62,357 nt of DNA from Pseudomonas phage 20Sep420. Shown piece after piece: positions 3,115 through 46,177 of this stretch; within the stretch, counting starts at the first letter, position 1; the number at the start of each line of letters is the position of its first letter. The notes under the pieces are model-generated. The model made no database searches and was not told the origin of the DNA. It saw only the letters and a list, made by a program, of their open reading frames with translations. The translations under genes were made by a program, and so were the position numbers. The stretch lies in the sequence record OQ319938.1. One strand, written 5' to 3'.

Positions 3115-3494
3115 TGCTTAACTCCAATGCCTATGATTACGCGAACGTCGGAAGGCTTCAACACTTCCTTCCATTCGATGCCCTTGATGACACCGCCGTC
3201 GCGAATCTTGGTGATTTCGTTGGTATCGAGGTCGAGCGGTGGGGCGCACAGGCAGACCTGCACGTCGCTGCTAAACATGTTCCCGGTTTCAACAGTTTCA
3301 CCAAAGCCCGAACCTTGATACGGTACGAATACGGCGTCCACTGTGGTCAGGACGACTTCTTGGTTTGTACTTCCGTTCCACGGCTTCGTAGGATCGATAG
3401 GGACAGACTTTATTCCCATCAGATCGACCTTCCTGCCATGCTTTTTGATGAGCCGCTTCGCAAGCTCATACTTCTTCATGTGGTTGGCATTCAT
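3111..3494 (-). CDS. head-closure or neck protein candidate, 127 aa
   Basis: Start and stop overlap the flanking structural genes. The call rests on position. Confidence 0.35.
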   Translation of the reverse strand: MNANHMKKYELAKRLIKKHGRKVDLMGIKSVPIDPTKPWNGSTNQEVVLTTVDAVFVPYQGSGFGETVETGNMFSSDVQVCLCAPPLDLDTNEITKIRDGGVIKGIEWKEVLKPSDVRVIIGIGVKH

Positions 3495-4000
3495 GCGCGG
3501 ATCACTCGCCCCTGGGAGTTGCAGCGAAACGGACCCATCAGAGTGTCGGCCTTCGGGAAAGGTGCGAACTGCATATAGGTGCCAACACCGGTAACGTTGT
3601 TGACGCCATACTTAACACGTTCCTCGATAGGCCCGACTTTCTCAGTACGCTCGGCCACAGCAAGGCCAGACGGATCGACGGTAGGCCGTAGCCACAGTTC
3701 ATCCTCACTCGCGGCCAGGGCATATTCCATTGCGGCGCGCTTCACTGCTTCCGGAATGCCATCCCAGGCATCACGCGGGAAAGCAAGGGCCTGGAACTCG
3801 TTCAGAACTTCGCCCTTCAAGCAGGACCAACGAACGCCGATATAATCGGTGCCGTTGACCAGTGCTGACTCTTTGTCTTCGGTCGGAAGGTTGGCCCAGG
3901 ATATGATGCCGCGCAGCTTGAAATACGCGTCCGCTTCAGCCACGCTAACGTAGCTGTTGCTGTCCATCATCCCCGTTCCGTCTTCAACGATCAGGCTCAT
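3491..4000 (-). CDS. head-tail adaptor (gp6-like), 169 aa
   Basis: First small gene after the head gene set. The N-terminal SYVSVAEADAYF-type sequence is typical of adaptor proteins. Confidence 0.4.
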   Translation of the reverse strand: MSLIVEDGTGMMDSNSYVSVAEADAYFKLRGIISWANLPTEDKESALVNGTDYIGVRWSCLKGEVLNEFQALAFPRDAWDGIPEAVKRAAMEYALAASEDELWLRPTVDPSGLAVAERTEKVGPIEERVKYGVNNVTGVGTYMQFAPFPKADTLMGPFRCNSQGRVIRA

Positions 4001-37523: not shown

Positions 37524-37599
37524 GCCGCCTTAGCTCAGTCGGTAGAGCAGCTACCTTGTAAGTAGACGGTCAGGGGTTCGAATCCTCTAGGCGGCACCA
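37524..37599 (+). tRNA. tRNA-Thr (anticodon UGU)
   Basis: I folded this by hand. 7-bp acceptor stem GCCGCCT/AGGCGGC, D arm GCTCAGTCGGTAGAGC, anticodon loop CTTGTAA, T arm AGGGGTTCGAATCCTCT, and CCA. Confidence 0.7.
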
Positions 37600-42402: not shown

Positions 42403-44313
42403 ATGAAGCTCCGACACTACCAGCAAGACGGCATCGATTCGTTCATCAACTACTTCATGAATGGCGGTACGGGAAACCCGCTCATGTGCTTCCCGACAGG
42501 AACCGGCAAGTCCGTCATCCTGGCAGGTTGTATTCGTGAAGTCCTTAGCCGATGGGCGGGCACTCGAATCCTGGCGCTGGTGCATGTGAAGGAGCTGGTC
42601 GGGCAGAACTACCGCAAGTTTGAGCAGCTGTGCCCCGATGTGCACGGCGGTATCTACTCGGCAGGACTTGGCGAAAAGCAAACCGAAGGCACCGTCATTT
42701 TCGGTGGCGTTGCCTCCGTCGTGAAGAAGATGGACGACCTCATGGCGACAGGTCCGTTCCATCTTGTGTTCGTTGACGAAGCGCACATGATTTCGCCGAA
42801 CGATGAGACGATGTATCGGAAGATCATCGAGCAAATCAAGGCAAAGAATCCGGCAGTGCGAGTGATCGGCCTGACTGCTACTCCGTGGCGTCCTGGCCTT
42901 GGTCGTATCGATGATGAAGGTGGCTTGTTCACCGAGACCATCTGCGACTGGACTTCGATGGAGAAGTTCAATCAGCTGATTACGGAAGGCTTCCTGTGCC
43001 CGCTCATTCCGTTCAGCACTGAATTGGTCCTCAACGTCGATGGCGTGAAGACTCGCGGCGGCGACTTCGTAGAGAAGGATTTGCAGGATGCGGTCAACCG
43101 CGACGAAATCACCCGTGCTGCACTGACCGAGTGCTTGCAGTTCAAGGACAGCCGCAAGTCCTGGCTAATCTTCGGTGCCGGTGTGGACCACTGCCTGCGC
43201 ATCGCCGAAATGCTCAACGAAATGGGCGTCAGTGCGCGTGCCGTGTGGTCGTCTCGCAAGGTCAAGATGGTTGGACCCGATGGCCTTCCGGTGGTCGATG
43301 AAGAGACGAAGAAGTTCAAGTATCAGACCATCAGCTGCCCGGATTCGGAGCGCGATGCCGCCATTGCAGATTTCAAGCGCGGTGACTTCCAGGCCATCGT
43401 ATCGAACGGCATCCTGACCACAGGGTTCGATCATCCGCCCGTCGATATGATCGTCATGTTGCGTCCAACCAAGTCGGTTACGCTGTGGATTCAGATGCTG
43501 GGTCGCGGTACACGTCCGTTCGATCCCATGCTGGTCGATCCGATGGAAATCAACATCAACTTCTTCAATCAGGCCAAGCTCAACACCCTGGTGCTGGACT
43601 TCGCACGCAACACCAAGCGCCTTGGCTGCATCAACGATCCGTACATCCCGAACAAGAAGGGCAAGGGTGGTGGCACTGCACCGATCAAGGAATGCCCGCT
43701 GTGCATGAACAACGTGCCTGCGTCGGCCAAGGTCTGCCCAGGTATCAAGGTAACTACCAACGAGCCGTGCAACTACGAATTCCCTGTGGCTACGGCAATC
43801 GAGAACAAGGCAAGCGAAGAGGAACTGATTAAGGGGAACATCCCCGAAGTCAACATGTTTCGAATCGACCACATCAGCTATGAGAAATACAGGAATCCAG
43901 CCAAGGGGACCTCGCTCAAAATCTCATACTCATGCGGCAATAAAACGATCAATGAGTTCGTCTGCATTGAATACGCTGATGGCGCCAGAAAGATGGCAGA
44001 GCGGTGGATGCGCGAAAACCTTGTTGGCGGGTTCGCTGCGTCGAAGACGATTCTGACGGTCAACCAATTGCTGAACGATCTTACTCAGATCAAGACGCCA
44101 ACCCATATTCGTGTCGTAACGAATGAGCGCTATCCGCGAATCGTTGGCCGGTGCTGGGACGGCAGCGGATTCGGAACGGAAGCTGAACCGACCCCCATGC
44201 CAGCTATTGACGGTAAGGGGGATATCATGGAAACTTTATCTCAACAGGCAGCGGCCTTCTTCAACAAGCCGACAGCCCCTTCCACTTACGATGACGACGA
44301 CATTCCTTTCTGA
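42403..44313 (+). CDS. SF2 DEAD/DEAH-type DNA helicase (ResIII-like) with a C-terminal zinc ribbon
   Basis: LRHYQ start, Walker A FPTGTGKS, VFVDEAH, and CPLCMN...VCPG. Confidence 0.75.
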   Translation: MKLRHYQQDGIDSFINYFMNGGTGNPLMCFPTGTGKSVILAGCIREVLSRWAGTRILALVHVKELVGQNYRKFEQLCPDVHGGIYSAGLGEKQTEGTVIFGGVASVVKKMDDLMATGPFHLVFVDEAHMISPNDETMYRKIIEQIKAKNPAVRVIGLTATPWRPGLGRIDDEGGLFTETICDWTSMEKFNQLITEGFLCPLIPFSTELVLNVDGVKTRGGDFVEKDLQDAVNRDEITRAALTECLQFKDSRKSWLIFGAGVDHCLRIAEMLNEMGVSARAVWSSRKVKMVGPDGLPVVDEETKKFKYQTISCPDSERDAAIADFKRGDFQAIVSNGILTTGFDHPPVDMIVMLRPTKSVTLWIQMLGRGTRPFDPMLVDPMEININFFNQAKLNTLVLDFARNTKRLGCINDPYIPNKKGKGGGTAPIKECPLCMNNVPASAKVCPGIKVTTNEPCNYEFPVATAIENKASEEELIKGNIPEVNMFRIDHISYEKYRNPAKGTSLKISYSCGNKTINEFVCIEYADGARKMAERWMRENLVGGFAASKTILTVNQLLNDLTQIKTPTHIRVVTNERYPRIVGRCWDGSGFGTEAEPTPMPAIDGKGDIMETLSQQAAAFFNKPTAPSTYDDDDIPF

Positions 44314-44325
44314 GAGAACTGAGCA

Positions 44326-44517
44326 ATGGGCAAGAGCGACAATTACAAGGTGAAGTTCGTCAACGAGAAGAACGTGGAGTGCGTTGACGGACAACCGAAT
44401 TTCACCCGCAAAGCTGCGAAGCATCGTGCCAAGCAGCTGGCGAACAACAACTTCAAGCTGACGGATTTCGTCATCGTCCATCCGGACGGCCACGAAGAAA
44501 TCCTCAGTCTGGAATAG
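44326..44517 (+). CDS. hypothetical basic protein, 63 aa
   Basis: Compact ORF. Confidence 0.45.
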   Translation: MGKSDNYKVKFVNEKNVECVDGQPNFTRKAAKHRAKQLANNNFKLTDFVIVHPDGHEEILSLE

Positions 44518-45035
44518 TATTGCTGAGGGGTGGTCTTCGAGCACCGGGGCTGACGATCTCGCCAGCCTACGCGTAGCACCTACAGGGACTCAGTGCTAAG
44601 TCCTTAATGATCCACCAGCATGCGTCAGTGTCCCCGTAGACATGCACTGGCGATAGCGACGACAACATGACGGGTTTTCAACGATTTTACCGTCATGTGA
44701 TAGCACCCGTGGAAGACCGTAATAATTTGCGCGGGATGGTGGATAGAGCAGGAAAGTGGCGACCTTGCCAGAGTAGGTTGCCGGTGCGGTGTGTAGCTTA
44801 GGCGAAAGCAGTGGTTGTCCGGGGTGCGCCAAACACCCAACTTGATCTAAACGGGACAAGGGACATAATTGGGTTGCCGCCCTTCCATCAACGCAGGTTC
44901 GACACCTGCCACACCGCGCCCTTTAGAAAACACCTTGATTCCGCAACGCACTCCCTGATCTACGTGATGGGACATAGTGGGCAAGTCGGCAGGGTGTTTT
45001 CCAAAGGGGAACGTCAACGGGACTGGAACCCTTAT
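44518..45035 (+). ncRNA. candidate structured noncoding RNA or leader
   Basis: No credible ORF on either strand. Multiple perfect hairpins, for example ACATGACGG...CCGTCATGT. A tRNA T-arm-like GCAGGTTCGACACCTGC. Ends at a strong terminator. Confidence 0.35.
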
Positions 45036-45067
45036 GCCCGCCTAGTCTATGATTGGGCGGGCTTTTT
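45036..45067 (+). terminator. rho-independent terminator
   Basis: GCCCGCC, a 13-nt loop, GGCGGGC, then TTTTT. Confidence 0.65.
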
Positions 45068-45087
45068 ACATGACCACAGGAGGATGT

Positions 45088-45204
45088 ATGGAAGACCATG
45101 AGTGTCAAGAGTGCGGGCTGACAATCGGCGAAGGCGAGTACGAAGAGAACAACGGTGTATGCGACTTCTGCTTCGAAGAATTCGGCGAGGTCTACGATGA
45201 TTGA
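45088..45204 (+). CDS. zinc-ribbon micro-protein, 38 aa
   Basis: AGGAGG RBS at 45078-83. CQEC...CDFC. Overlaps the start of the downstream gene by 8 nt. Confidence 0.35.
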   Translation: MEDHECQECGLTIGEGEYEENNGVCDFCFEEFGEVYDD

Positions 45205-46177
45205 CGAACTGAAGTTCGTACAGGGTGCTGTCGGTAAAACCGACATGCTGGCGCAGATGACCCACTTCTGCATCGAGAACCGGCAGATCAGGGCAACCAA
45301 TGGCCGCATCACGATTGGCGCACCGATTGCGTGTGATCTGACTGTGAAGCCGAAGGCCGACAAGTTCGTGGCTGCGATCACCCAGGCCGAAGGAACCGTG
45401 TCGCTGACTGTGAATCAGGCCGGTAAGCTGGTCGTAAAGTCCGGGCGCATGAATGTTCGCATCGACTGCCTGACAGAAGACTTCCACTACCCGCGCCCCG
45501 ATGGCATCGCCCGACAGATCGACGGGCAGGGCCTGCGGAAGGCCCTGGATACGCTCAGGCCGCTCGTTGCGGAGCGCCGGGCACCGCAGGAGTGGGCGAA
45601 GGGCGTGCTGCTTCGTGGGGCCTCTGCGTTCGCCACGAACGGGCATGCGGTCGGCCAATACTGGATCGGCACCGAATTCCCTGGGGAAGTCGTGATCCCG
45701 CTGGATACTGTGGCCGAAATCCTTCGCATCAAGGAAGCGCCCAAGCACGTCCAGATCGATAACAGCAGCATGACCTTCCATTACGAAGGTATGAAGTGGG
45801 TGCGTACTGCACTTCTGGCTGCGCGATGGCCTGAGAACTCTGCTATCGAAGCCATGTTCGCCAAGGAACGGGGCAACTACGTGCCGATTCCGAAGGAGGC
45901 GTTCGAGACCGCGAAGAAGCTGAAGAAGTACATCGAAGACGATGGGTTCTTCTACATGGATCGCGGCGAATTCCGAAGCCACCTGGGCGGGGATGAAGGC
46001 GCTACCATCGCCATCGACTTTGCCCCAGGACTGTTCCGTCTGAAGTTGCAGGACTTCCTTGATATGGAAGAATACGCAACCGAAATGGAATTCAATGAGT
46101 GGGGTAACAACGTTCCGCTGTACCTGCGCGGTGGGATGTTCCGGGGAGCGGTGCAGACCGTAAACCCGAATTTCTAA
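45197..46177 (+). CDS. sliding clamp (DnaN-like) processivity factor candidate, 326 aa
   Basis: The N-terminal domain pattern resembles the beta clamp (NGRITIGAPIA...GKLVVKSGRMNVRIDCLTEDFHYP). Adjacent to polB. Confidence 0.4.
   Translation: MIDELKFVQGAVGKTDMLAQMTHFCIENRQIRATNGRITIGAPIACDLTVKPKADKFVAAITQAEGTVSLTVNQAGKLVVKSGRMNVRIDCLTEDFHYPRPDGIARQIDGQGLRKALDTLRPLVAERRAPQEWAKGVLLRGASAFATNGHAVGQYWIGTEFPGEVVIPLDTVAEILRIKEAPKHVQIDNSSMTFHYEGMKWVRTALLAARWPENSAIEAMFAKERGNYVPIPKEAFETAKKLKKYIEDDGFFYMDRGEFRSHLGGDEGATIAIDFAPGLFRLKLQDFLDMEEYATEMEFNEWGNNVPLYLRGGMFRGAVQTVNPNF

Follow-up and report, generated by a model that had tools for sequence, protein, structure and literature searches.

The 62,357-nucleotide (nt) stretch deposited as Pseudomonas phage 20Sep420 (sequence record OQ319938.1; hereafter the window) has a gap at 44518-45067, between its helicase gene and its clamp and PolB genes, that encodes a plus-strand non-coding RNA (ncRNA) of ~490-550 nt with roughly 13 conserved helices. 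The RNA comprises a 5′ domain, a module that by its sequence descends from a tRNA, and a long hairpin, H3, and the unit is closed by a terminator. Our best reading is of a new structured ncRNA, still a candidate, that has a tRNA mimic embedded in it and is GOLLD/ROOL-like in its context. We put a probability of about 0.55 on it being one integrated RNA, in which a scaffold displays the tRNA mimic, which would recruit a factor that recognises the shape of a tRNA.

A conserved RNA unit between the helicase and clamp genes

The window comes from a Stenotrophomonas siphophage in the genus Bixiavirus (Beaumontvirinae), and its gap is 95% identical to the corresponding stretch of phage BUCT548. The RNA unit occupies the same genomic position, between the helicase gene and a 63-amino-acid (aa) open reading frame (ORF) on one side and the clamp and PolB genes on the other, in 10 named Stenotrophomonas phage genomes (13 GenBank/RefSeq records) and seven uncultured contigs. 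The named phages, BUCT548, BUCT627, BUCT626, Salva, Siara, Bhz55, cm3, CM2, Yut1 and Yut4, are every Stenotrophomonas Beaumontvirinae phage examined. Six uncultured relatives came from a clamp protein search and contig look-ups (clamp identities: L013 80%, L017 61%, L019 59%, L018 58%, L020 53%, L021 52%), and the seventh, L025, was added through a motif scan.

No conserved ORF crosses the gap among these lineages, in agreement with the original prediction, made from the sequence of the window alone, that the gap holds no credible ORF. Translated similarity between lineages consists of 10-48 aa patches in every frame and on both strands, the indels do not come in multiples of three, and lineages have exchanged whole modules. 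Public records do place features inside the RNA: "tRNA-Pseudo-TCC" in BUCT627, three small coding sequences (CDSs) in Salva, one CDS each in Yut1 and Yut4, and "tRNA-Trp" in Siara (GenBank intervals L001 1985-2115, L004 2375-2981, L008 987-1106 and L009 2809-2887). None of the CDSs in Salva, Yut1 and Yut4 is conserved, the Siara "tRNA-Trp" has an 8-base-pair (bp) anticodon stem, G33 and no CCA, and these CDS and tRNA labels are probably wrong.

The plus strand of the gap folds at -215 kcal/mol, with z = -3.26 against dinucleotide shuffles (0/100 as good), compared with z = -1.84 for the minus strand. Among the predicted pairs of the 5′ domain, 105 of 672 are G·U, and invariant G·U pairs occur, for example, at the base of the anticodon-arm helix and twice in helix Pd (both described below). 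On the other strand each of these would be an A·C mismatch. The unit runs in the same direction as the flanking genes and genuine tRNAs. The original prediction of a phage-encoded structured ncRNA is thus well supported by conservation at the same position, by compensatory pair changes and by strand-specific G·U pairs.

Architecture of the 5′ domain

A plain MAFFT alignment of the 5′ domain (44518-44782) put several helices out of register and gave a poor RNAalifold consensus; it was replaced by per-lineage folds and a hold-out covariance model. Independent minimum-free-energy folds of nine divergent lineages gave one architecture, with the following elements in the window.

44518-44609, plus strand: leader, with hairpins at 44529-45, 44546-67 and 44567-76, and the hairpin Ld
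44586-90/44599-603, plus strand: stem of Ld (GGACT/AGTCC), with the loop CAGTGCTA at 44591-98
44610-44744, plus strand: four-way junction, in which P1 (44610-17/44737-44) closes Pb, Pc and Pd
44623-52, plus strand: Pb, which holds CAGTG/CACTG and whose loop starts UUCCCC (...ACAUG)
44665-98, plus strand: Pc, with the 9-bp stem ACATGACGG/CCGTCATGT at 44665-73/44690-98
44706-35, plus strand: Pd, with the loop GAAGACCGUAAUAAUUUG (GAAGRCCGUAAUWAUUUG across lineages)
44745-44757, plus strand: junction J, AGAGCAGGAAAGT
44758-82, plus strand: Pe, with the stem GGCGACCU/AGGUUGCC and the loop UGCCAGAGU

Constant loops on changing stems recur through this domain. The leader begins with a conserved GGGKNGRYC motif. 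Ld is present in all lineages with the loop CAGYGCKA held constant, on stems that read GGACU/AGUCC, GGGUC/GACCC, GUC/GAC, AGAAUA/UAUUCU or AGAACA/UGUUCU. The Pe loop GCCANA is kept in 17/17 sequences, with GCCA invariant, and its stem covaries (GCUCCCU/AGGGAGC, GCCCCAU/AUGGGGC, CGCACCC/GGGUGCG, GCACC/GGUGC).

The hold-out covariance model (172 positions, 46 pairs) was built from Salva, Bhz55, Yut1, Siara and L021 only, without any Bixiavirus sequence. It matched the window at 44609-44786 with 34.8 bits (E = 1.3e-7) and also matched L018 (49.6 bits), L017 (35.8 bits), BUCT548 (29.4 bits) and L019 (27.0 bits); with filters off it matched BUCT627 (20.7 bits) and BUCT626 (17.4 bits). L013, which is without Pc, was missed. 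Nothing significant was returned from the rest of the window or from control loci, where two noise matches had E > 0.3. In the alignment of the domain (A6), 96.4% of cells are paired, 31/46 pairs have changed on both sides, and covariation is 0.56 versus 0.19 when shuffled (0/500) and ≤0.11 when slid, figures that overstate the number of independent events, since the alignment was fitted to the covariance model and draws on few lineages.

Several longer-range contacts were considered. Nucleotides 4-7 of the Ld loop (UGCU, 44594-97) are complementary to AGCA in J (44747-50), and this pairing reads UGCU:AGCA in Bixiavirus and L013 and CGCG:CGCG in all other lineages. This candidate Ld-J pseudoknot rests on a single double change in the sequences and is suggestive. 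Pairing of the CCCC in the Pb loop with GGGG in the leader is possible; both sides are nearly invariant, so covariation is uninformative there. A kissing contact between the anticodon-like loop (CAAA/UAAA) and the Pd loop (UUUG/UUUA) was dropped when its covariation became inconsistent on adding L013, L017, L018 and L019. The string AGGAAAGU in J, considered as an RNase P CR-I motif, is missing from most lineages and was rejected as a chance occurrence.

A tRNA-derived module with an altered anticodon arm

Three nt after the 5′ domain, the second module occupies 44786-44917 of the window and contains the following parts.

44786-93/44910-17, plus strand: acceptor stem, 8 bp, GCGGUGUG/CACACCGC
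44796-809, plus strand: D arm, GCUU-AGGCGA-AAGC, preceded by U8 and A9
44811-14/44885-88, plus strand: base of the anticodon arm, 4 bp, GUGG/CCAU
44815-84, plus strand: branched insert of 70 nt, with one hairpin of loop CGCCAAA (44827-33; stem GGGTG/CACCC at 44822-26/44834-38) and another of the form GGG-N6-CCC (44871-82)
Before the T arm, plus strand: variable loop, CAAC
44893-44909, plus strand: T arm, GCAGGTTCGACACCTGC, pairing as GCAGG-UUCGACA-CCUGC, with the T loop TTCGACA at 44898-904

The original prediction had noticed only the T-arm-like hairpin. The hairpin is real, at 44893-44909 and not where it had been placed, and it belongs to a full tRNA-derived module with acceptor stem, D arm, T arm and Levitt pair. 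The perfect stems that had been listed with it are all where they were said to be, at 44665-73/44690-98, at 44586-90/44599-603, inside 44623-52 and at 44822-26/44834-38, and the comparative folding that had been proposed as a check revealed conserved structure with covariation in both the 5′ domain and the tRNA-like module.

Across 15 distinct sequences, 99.7% of cells in the module are paired and 8/21 pairs have changed on both sides, with covariation of 0.455 versus 0.138 when shuffled (0/500) and ≤0.10 when slid. The GGG-N6-CCC hairpin of the insert covaries as well. Positions -1 and 73 are paired in 15/15 sequences, and because this pair occurs in four types (G-C, A-U, U-A and C-G) the acceptor stem is truly 8 bp long; in the window the helix can be extended to 11 bp by using the GGU linker that follows the 5′ domain. 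Most lineages have G:C as the 15:48 Levitt pair, and L017 and L019 have A:U. U8, A14, G53:C61 and the UUCGA of the T loop (positions 54-58) are invariant. In the 11 sequences first compared, 22 nt of the D arm and 11 nt of the T arm are invariant; the D and T loops differ in L013, L017, L019 and L025.

Orthologues of the module are recognised as tRNAs to differing degrees. The Rfam tRNA model (threshold 29 bits) scores L019 at 51.3 bits, L021/Siara at 46.4 bits and L017 at 33.4 bits, and ARAGORN calls these three tRNA-Gln(uug) or tRNA-Trp(cca). The copies in BUCT626, Bhz55, cm3 and CM2 are called tRNA-??? with a four-base anticodon. The window module gave no match to the Rfam tRNA model at E ≤ 10, whether 1001 nt or 151 nt were searched, and none with ARAGORN. 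Judged by its sequence features, the module nonetheless descends from a tRNA.

The module cannot decode, because it has no 5-bp anticodon stem, has G at position 33, encodes no CCA and has position 73 paired. The 5-bp anticodon stem and 7-nt loop with U33 are absent from the window, where CGCCAAA has G at the U33 position, and even the shortest orthologues have anticodon stems of 8 bp with G33 (Siara) or 7 bp with A33 (L019). The "anticodon" itself varies among orthologues (CCA, CUA, UUG, GGC). After position 73 the module continues with GCCC, whereas CCA is encoded by the real tRNA-Ser genes of these phages. We infer that selection acts on the elbow (the D and T arms, U8-A14 and G15:C48) and on the closed 8-bp acceptor stem, not on the anticodon.

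The anticodon-arm insert exists in at least three alternative cassettes and in an insert-free form, and their distribution does not track the phage phylogeny.

H3, a decayed tRNA and the terminator

Downstream of the acceptor stem, the remainder of the unit in the window is made up as follows.

44919-45008, plus strand: H3, with the basal stem CCCUUUAGAAAACACCUUG/CAGGGUGUUUUCCAAAGGG of 19 bp with one A·C mismatch, and a variable apex at 44938-89
45005-45035, plus strand: probable decayed tRNA-Ser, its 5′ GGG fused to remnants of the variable arm, the T arm and the 3′ half of the acceptor
45036-45067, plus strand: intrinsic terminator, GCCCGCC...GGCGGGC, with a stem of 12 pairs (8 G-C) at 45036-45062, then T5

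The basal duplex of H3 is 17-19 bp long, with 16-17 of 17 positions paired in 12 lineages, compensatory changes, and the mismatch at a conserved position. Its apex in the window is 87% identical to that of Bhz55 and cm3 (and also CM2), which belong to a different genus, while the nearest relative, BUCT548, has a Yut1-type apex. On this sequence evidence the modules of the RNA have evidently recombined between phage genera.

In relatives an intact tRNA-Ser(gct) abuts H3, whose 3′ strand runs exactly to position +1 of the tRNA. The segment 45005-35 of the window can be aligned to the intact tRNA-Ser(gct) that L017, L019, Bhz55 and L025 have there, moderate evidence that it is probably a decayed copy of that gene. 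The terminator, correctly located by the original prediction, is conserved in Bixiavirus, Salva, L013, L017, L019 and L025.

Further modules accompany the unit in some relatives. A conserved non-coding module of ~200 nt, with no Rfam match, stands between tRNA-Ser or H3 and the terminator in L004 (Salva; ~2700-2990), L017 (~3415-3700) and L025 (reverse complement, ~370-560), and is absent from the window; it contains ...GGAAGGCGG..AAGCCGCA.CGTTAAACCGC.GGCAGGAAACCAACTCAGCCGGG.ATACGTGCGT... L013 has, at ~3680-3800, two consecutive T arms (ACCGG-TTCGATT-CCGGT and GAGGG-TTCGATT-CCCTC) within one acceptor-like stem. L021 has, at ~2855-2950, a long hairpin after tRNA-Ser with an internal T-arm-like loop, ACGG-TTCAACT-CCGT.

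Comparison with known RNA families

Rfam searches of the whole window at gathering thresholds, and of 44300-45300 at E ≤ 10, placed no family in the gap. Matches to anti-hemB, mir-241, KDPG-aldolase and SNORA11 had 12-14 bits, which is chance level, and were discarded. The closest resemblance is to tRNA (RF00005), with which the module shares the acceptor stem, U8, the 4-bp D stem, the T arm with UUCGA and G53:C61, and the 15:48 Levitt pair; real tRNA-Ser or tRNA-His genes adjoin it in relatives. Unlike a tRNA, the module has a 70-nt branched insert on a 4-bp base, G or A at position 33, an 8-bp acceptor and no encoded CCA, and the window copy gets no score at all from the tRNA model; it fails both the model and three defining features.

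In design the RNA resembles the bacterial Y RNA YrlA, a non-decoding mimic whose tRNA-like module is tethered to Ro60 and which has the motif GNCGAAN0-1G in a Ro-binding stem near its 5′ end (PMC4201824). The two RNAs have in common a D arm, a T arm and an acceptor-like stem that are kept while the anticodon arm is altered, covariation of the Levitt pair, and an acceptor helix that is continued by further helices. Unlike YrlA, the window RNA is without a Ro-binding stem and without an Rfam match, and it has an added 270-nt 5′ domain. No Ro60/TROVE gene lies within 4 kb of the window RNA, and none is annotated anywhere in Siara. The string GGCGAAAG in the D loop and stem (44801-08) does fit GNCGAAN0-1G but occupies another part of the structure; L013, L017, L019 and L025 have other sequence there, and the fit is probably a coincidence.

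GOLLD and ROOL are large ornate phage and prophage RNAs found near tRNA islands, and GOLLD sometimes carries tRNAs covalently in a linker (PMC12286853). They resemble the window RNA in being multi-helix phage RNAs of several hundred nt, with no assigned function and with a variable periphery round a conserved core, and in relatives of the window tRNA-Ser, tRNA-His or tRNA-like modules directly follow. Their helices and conserved loops are different, GOLLD is larger, and their distribution is broad, compared with one clade of Stenotrophomonas phages here. Neither covariance model matched in the window (E ≤ 10 on 44300-45300) or in seven related loci.

Transfer-messenger RNA (tmRNA) likewise holds an acceptor and a T arm inside a larger structured RNA. 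The window RNA differs in having no tag ORF, pseudoknot ring, G3:U70 or CCA, and its insert is only 70 nt. ARAGORN found no tmRNA, and no member of the Rfam tmRNA clan matched at E ≤ 10. The original finding of no fit to tmRNA, RNase P RNA or 6S RNA therefore holds in covariance scans. The stable RNAs of phage T4 (species 1 and 2, rnaC/rnaD) are encoded in a tRNA cluster, are ~120-140 nt long and are co-transcribed and co-processed with the phage tRNAs. They too are small phage RNAs of unassigned function, and they have no large 5′ domain. The window RNA is thus outside all catalogued families; it is a new family within a known kind and not categorically new.

Distribution and genomic neighbourhood

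The RNA is confined to one clade, the Stenotrophomonas Beaumontvirinae-like phages. Scans of IMG/VR, JGI metagenomes and GTDB genomes with an exact 21-mer from the D arm gave no match, and the gapped motif GCCANA...GTAGCTTA...AGCNGTGG hit 37 loci across these collections, of which one, L025, is a true relative and the others are ordinary tRNAs or chance matches. A clamp-based locus search of IMG/VR returned no relatives, and blastn with the divergent L017 and L018 versions added no GenBank phages.

Beyond the clade, in the Queuovirinae and in relatives whose clamps are ~40% identical, a DpdA-like gene stands at the position of the RNA, with queuosine-pathway genes where the contig is long enough. 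The RNA island and the 7-deazaguanine cluster appear to be alternative cargoes at a single genomic position. In three Queuovirinae-type loci (L011, L012 and L062, clamps 35-40% identical) a 7-deazaguanine cluster (QueC/QueD/FolE/DpdA-like) lies upstream of the clamp.

Within the clade, Siara, Bhz55, cm3, Yut1/4, L020 and L021 have the RNA core, then tRNA-Ser and a Band_7 gene of 810 nt, and only then the terminator and clamp. This Band_7/SPFH membrane-protein gene (~270 aa) follows the RNA island and tRNA-Ser in Siara-type loci (L005, L006, L009, L020 and L021) and is absent from the genus of the window.

The immediate surroundings of the gap in the window are these.

Ends at 44313: helicase gene (DEAD/ResIII/Helicase_C), the upstream neighbour of the gap
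44326-44517: 63-aa ORF, whose stop codon directly precedes the gap
44518-45067, plus strand: the gap, with no credible gene until the ribosome-binding site (RBS) at 45078-83
45070-78: 9-mer ATGACCACA, between the terminator and the micro-ORF RBS, outside the RNA
45088-45204, plus strand: zinc-ribbon micro-ORF of 38 aa (CxxC...CxxC), with RBS AGGAGG at 45078-83 and ATG at 45088; it overlaps the clamp start by 8 nt
46229: start of the PolB gene, after the clamp

On a crude greedy ORF map the gap is the largest in the window, but not every other one is under 100 nt, as had been claimed: others measure 120-250 nt. The RBS of the micro-ORF agrees with the original prediction. In BUCT548, BUCT627 and BUCT626 the micro-ORF is conserved and appears in the annotation; upstream of the clamp in L013 and L017 there are small ORFs related to it. 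The 9-mer ATGACCACA is kept in Bixiavirus, Salva, L013, L017, L019 and L025, which are all the lineages with that arrangement, although its flanking bases vary, and it may be a promoter or operator element of the clamp/PolB unit.

A tRNA-Thr(tgt) gene (67.8 bits; 37524-37599) lies in the replication module ~7 kb upstream of the gap, with the same gene in Siara. It is the only tRNA that ARAGORN reports in the window, and it probably encodes its CCA, judged from the 76-nt ARAGORN span rather than read directly.

Discussion

We favour the integrated RNA because selection falls on the elbow and the closed acceptor, and because Pe, the acceptor stem and H3 abut almost without a linker. The transcript would form the 3′ end of the helicase transcription unit. 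Its own 3′ end would be set by the terminator in the window phage and, in relatives, by an RNase P cut at tRNA-Ser that leaves H3 terminal. The module most likely serves as a tRNA mimic. Its conserved elbow and acceptor would recruit a host factor, such as RNase P, modification enzymes, or a nuclease or sensor directed at tRNAs, and the 5′ domain would supply the specific activity or the assembly.

Several observations weigh against this reading. The comparison covers ~8-9 independent lineages, so that several covarying positions represent few events, and the 5′-domain figures carry the overstatement described above. No partner protein is encoded nearby, and the annotation of Siara is without Ro60, RtcB, a CCA-adding enzyme or an RNA ligase. 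The loop CGCYAA is common and not universal (L018 has UUGGCGC and L019 AAUUGAC), which leaves no single recognition loop to name. Modules are exchanged or lost among lineages, with Pc absent in L013 and tRNA-Ser decayed in the window, and this could reflect relaxed constraint on some parts. We also infer the stable transcript, its ends, its processing, its partner and its function.

The main rival, possible but doubtful, is that the unit is a polycistronic precursor, from which RNase P (5′ of the module), RNase Z/E (3′) and RNase III (at H3) would release RNAs of ~270 nt and ~130 nt that act independently, the tRNA-like module being mainly a processing signal. Such a signal has parallels in mascRNA/MALAT1 and in the phage T4 stable RNAs. 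The stacked acceptor and T arm, which form the RNase P determinant, are the best-conserved part of the module, the H3 duplex is of sufficient length for RNase III, and a genuine tRNA-Ser directly follows in relatives; the tRNA-like module of M. smegmatis YrlA is cleaved by RNase P in vitro (PMC4201824). Yet the -1:73 pair is conserved and covarying, in a helix that reaches 11 bp in the window, which would be surprising if position 73 had to stay free as the discriminator. The linkers are also short in most lineages (1-4 nt from Pe/Pf to the acceptor, 1-5 nt from the acceptor to H3), and the module encodes no CCA, unlike the phage's real tRNAs for Ser and, probably, Thr. More doubtful again, to our minds, is the specific proposal of a new ornate phage RNA class (~500 nt) in which a remodelled tRNA on a scaffold acts in trans, whether as a decoy or sponge that occupies an immune nuclease or sensor directed at tRNAs, as a hijacker of processing enzymes, or as a self-assembling particle like ROOL and GOLLD.

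The remaining explanations are all improbable. Decay of an ancestral tRNA island into pseudogenes and spacer with no present function would accommodate the tRNA-Ser remnant at 45005-35, the failure of tRNA detectors on the window module, the tRNA-Pseudo label in the BUCT627 record, and the gain, loss and exchange of modules among lineages. We consider it unlikely. Compensatory double changes have preserved 96-100% of pairs across lineages whose clamps are only 52-61% identical, a pattern that neutral drift does not generate. The D and T arms have the invariant stretches given above, and the 5′ domain, which is not tRNA-like, is equally constrained. A shade less likely is a cis-regulatory leader or attenuator for read-through into the zinc-ribbon, clamp and PolB genes, an idea already present in the original prediction and encouraged by the strong terminator 20 nt ahead of the micro-ORF start codon (10 nt ahead of its RBS) and by the conserved ATGACCACA between terminator and RBS. 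In Siara-type loci, however, the tRNA-Ser and the 810-nt Band_7 gene separate the core from the terminator and clamp, so the core is not tied to a clamp leader; no riboswitch, T-box or other Rfam cis-regulatory family matched in the gap, and a non-exhaustive search saw no alternative anti-terminator pairing. Least probable of all is an element that acts as DNA, such as the secondary origin or primer site suggested earlier, or a single-strand initiation site. The gap does sit inside the replication module, has many hairpins and lies in the stretch (44-46 kb) with the highest positive GC skew of the window, 0.067. Its only direct repeats are two two-copy repeats at chance level, with no iterons, and it has no AT-rich stretch (GC 0.56) and no change of sign in the cumulative skew. 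The conserved G·U pairs, which would be A·C mismatches on the complementary strand, also argue against a DNA element, as do the homology of the core with tRNA genes and its orientation, shared with real tRNAs and with transcription. Promoter-like sites are no commoner in the gap than in shuffled sequence.

Large ncRNAs supported by covariation are rare, and the phage examples GOLLD and ROOL are still without a known function. The RNA described here is compact and is carried by cultured, sequenced lytic phages of the clinically relevant Stenotrophomonas maltophilia, and its natural variants (short or long inserts, with or without Pc, with or without tRNA-Ser) amount to ready-made structure-function experiments. 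A practical point is that several GenBank records hold probably spurious small CDSs or "tRNA-Trp" and "tRNA-Pseudo" features within it. As a case of a tRNA gene turned into a non-decoding structural module, it bears on the origin of mimics such as YrlA and tmRNA, and on why phages carry tRNA-like genes while their hosts deploy tRNA-cleaving defences.

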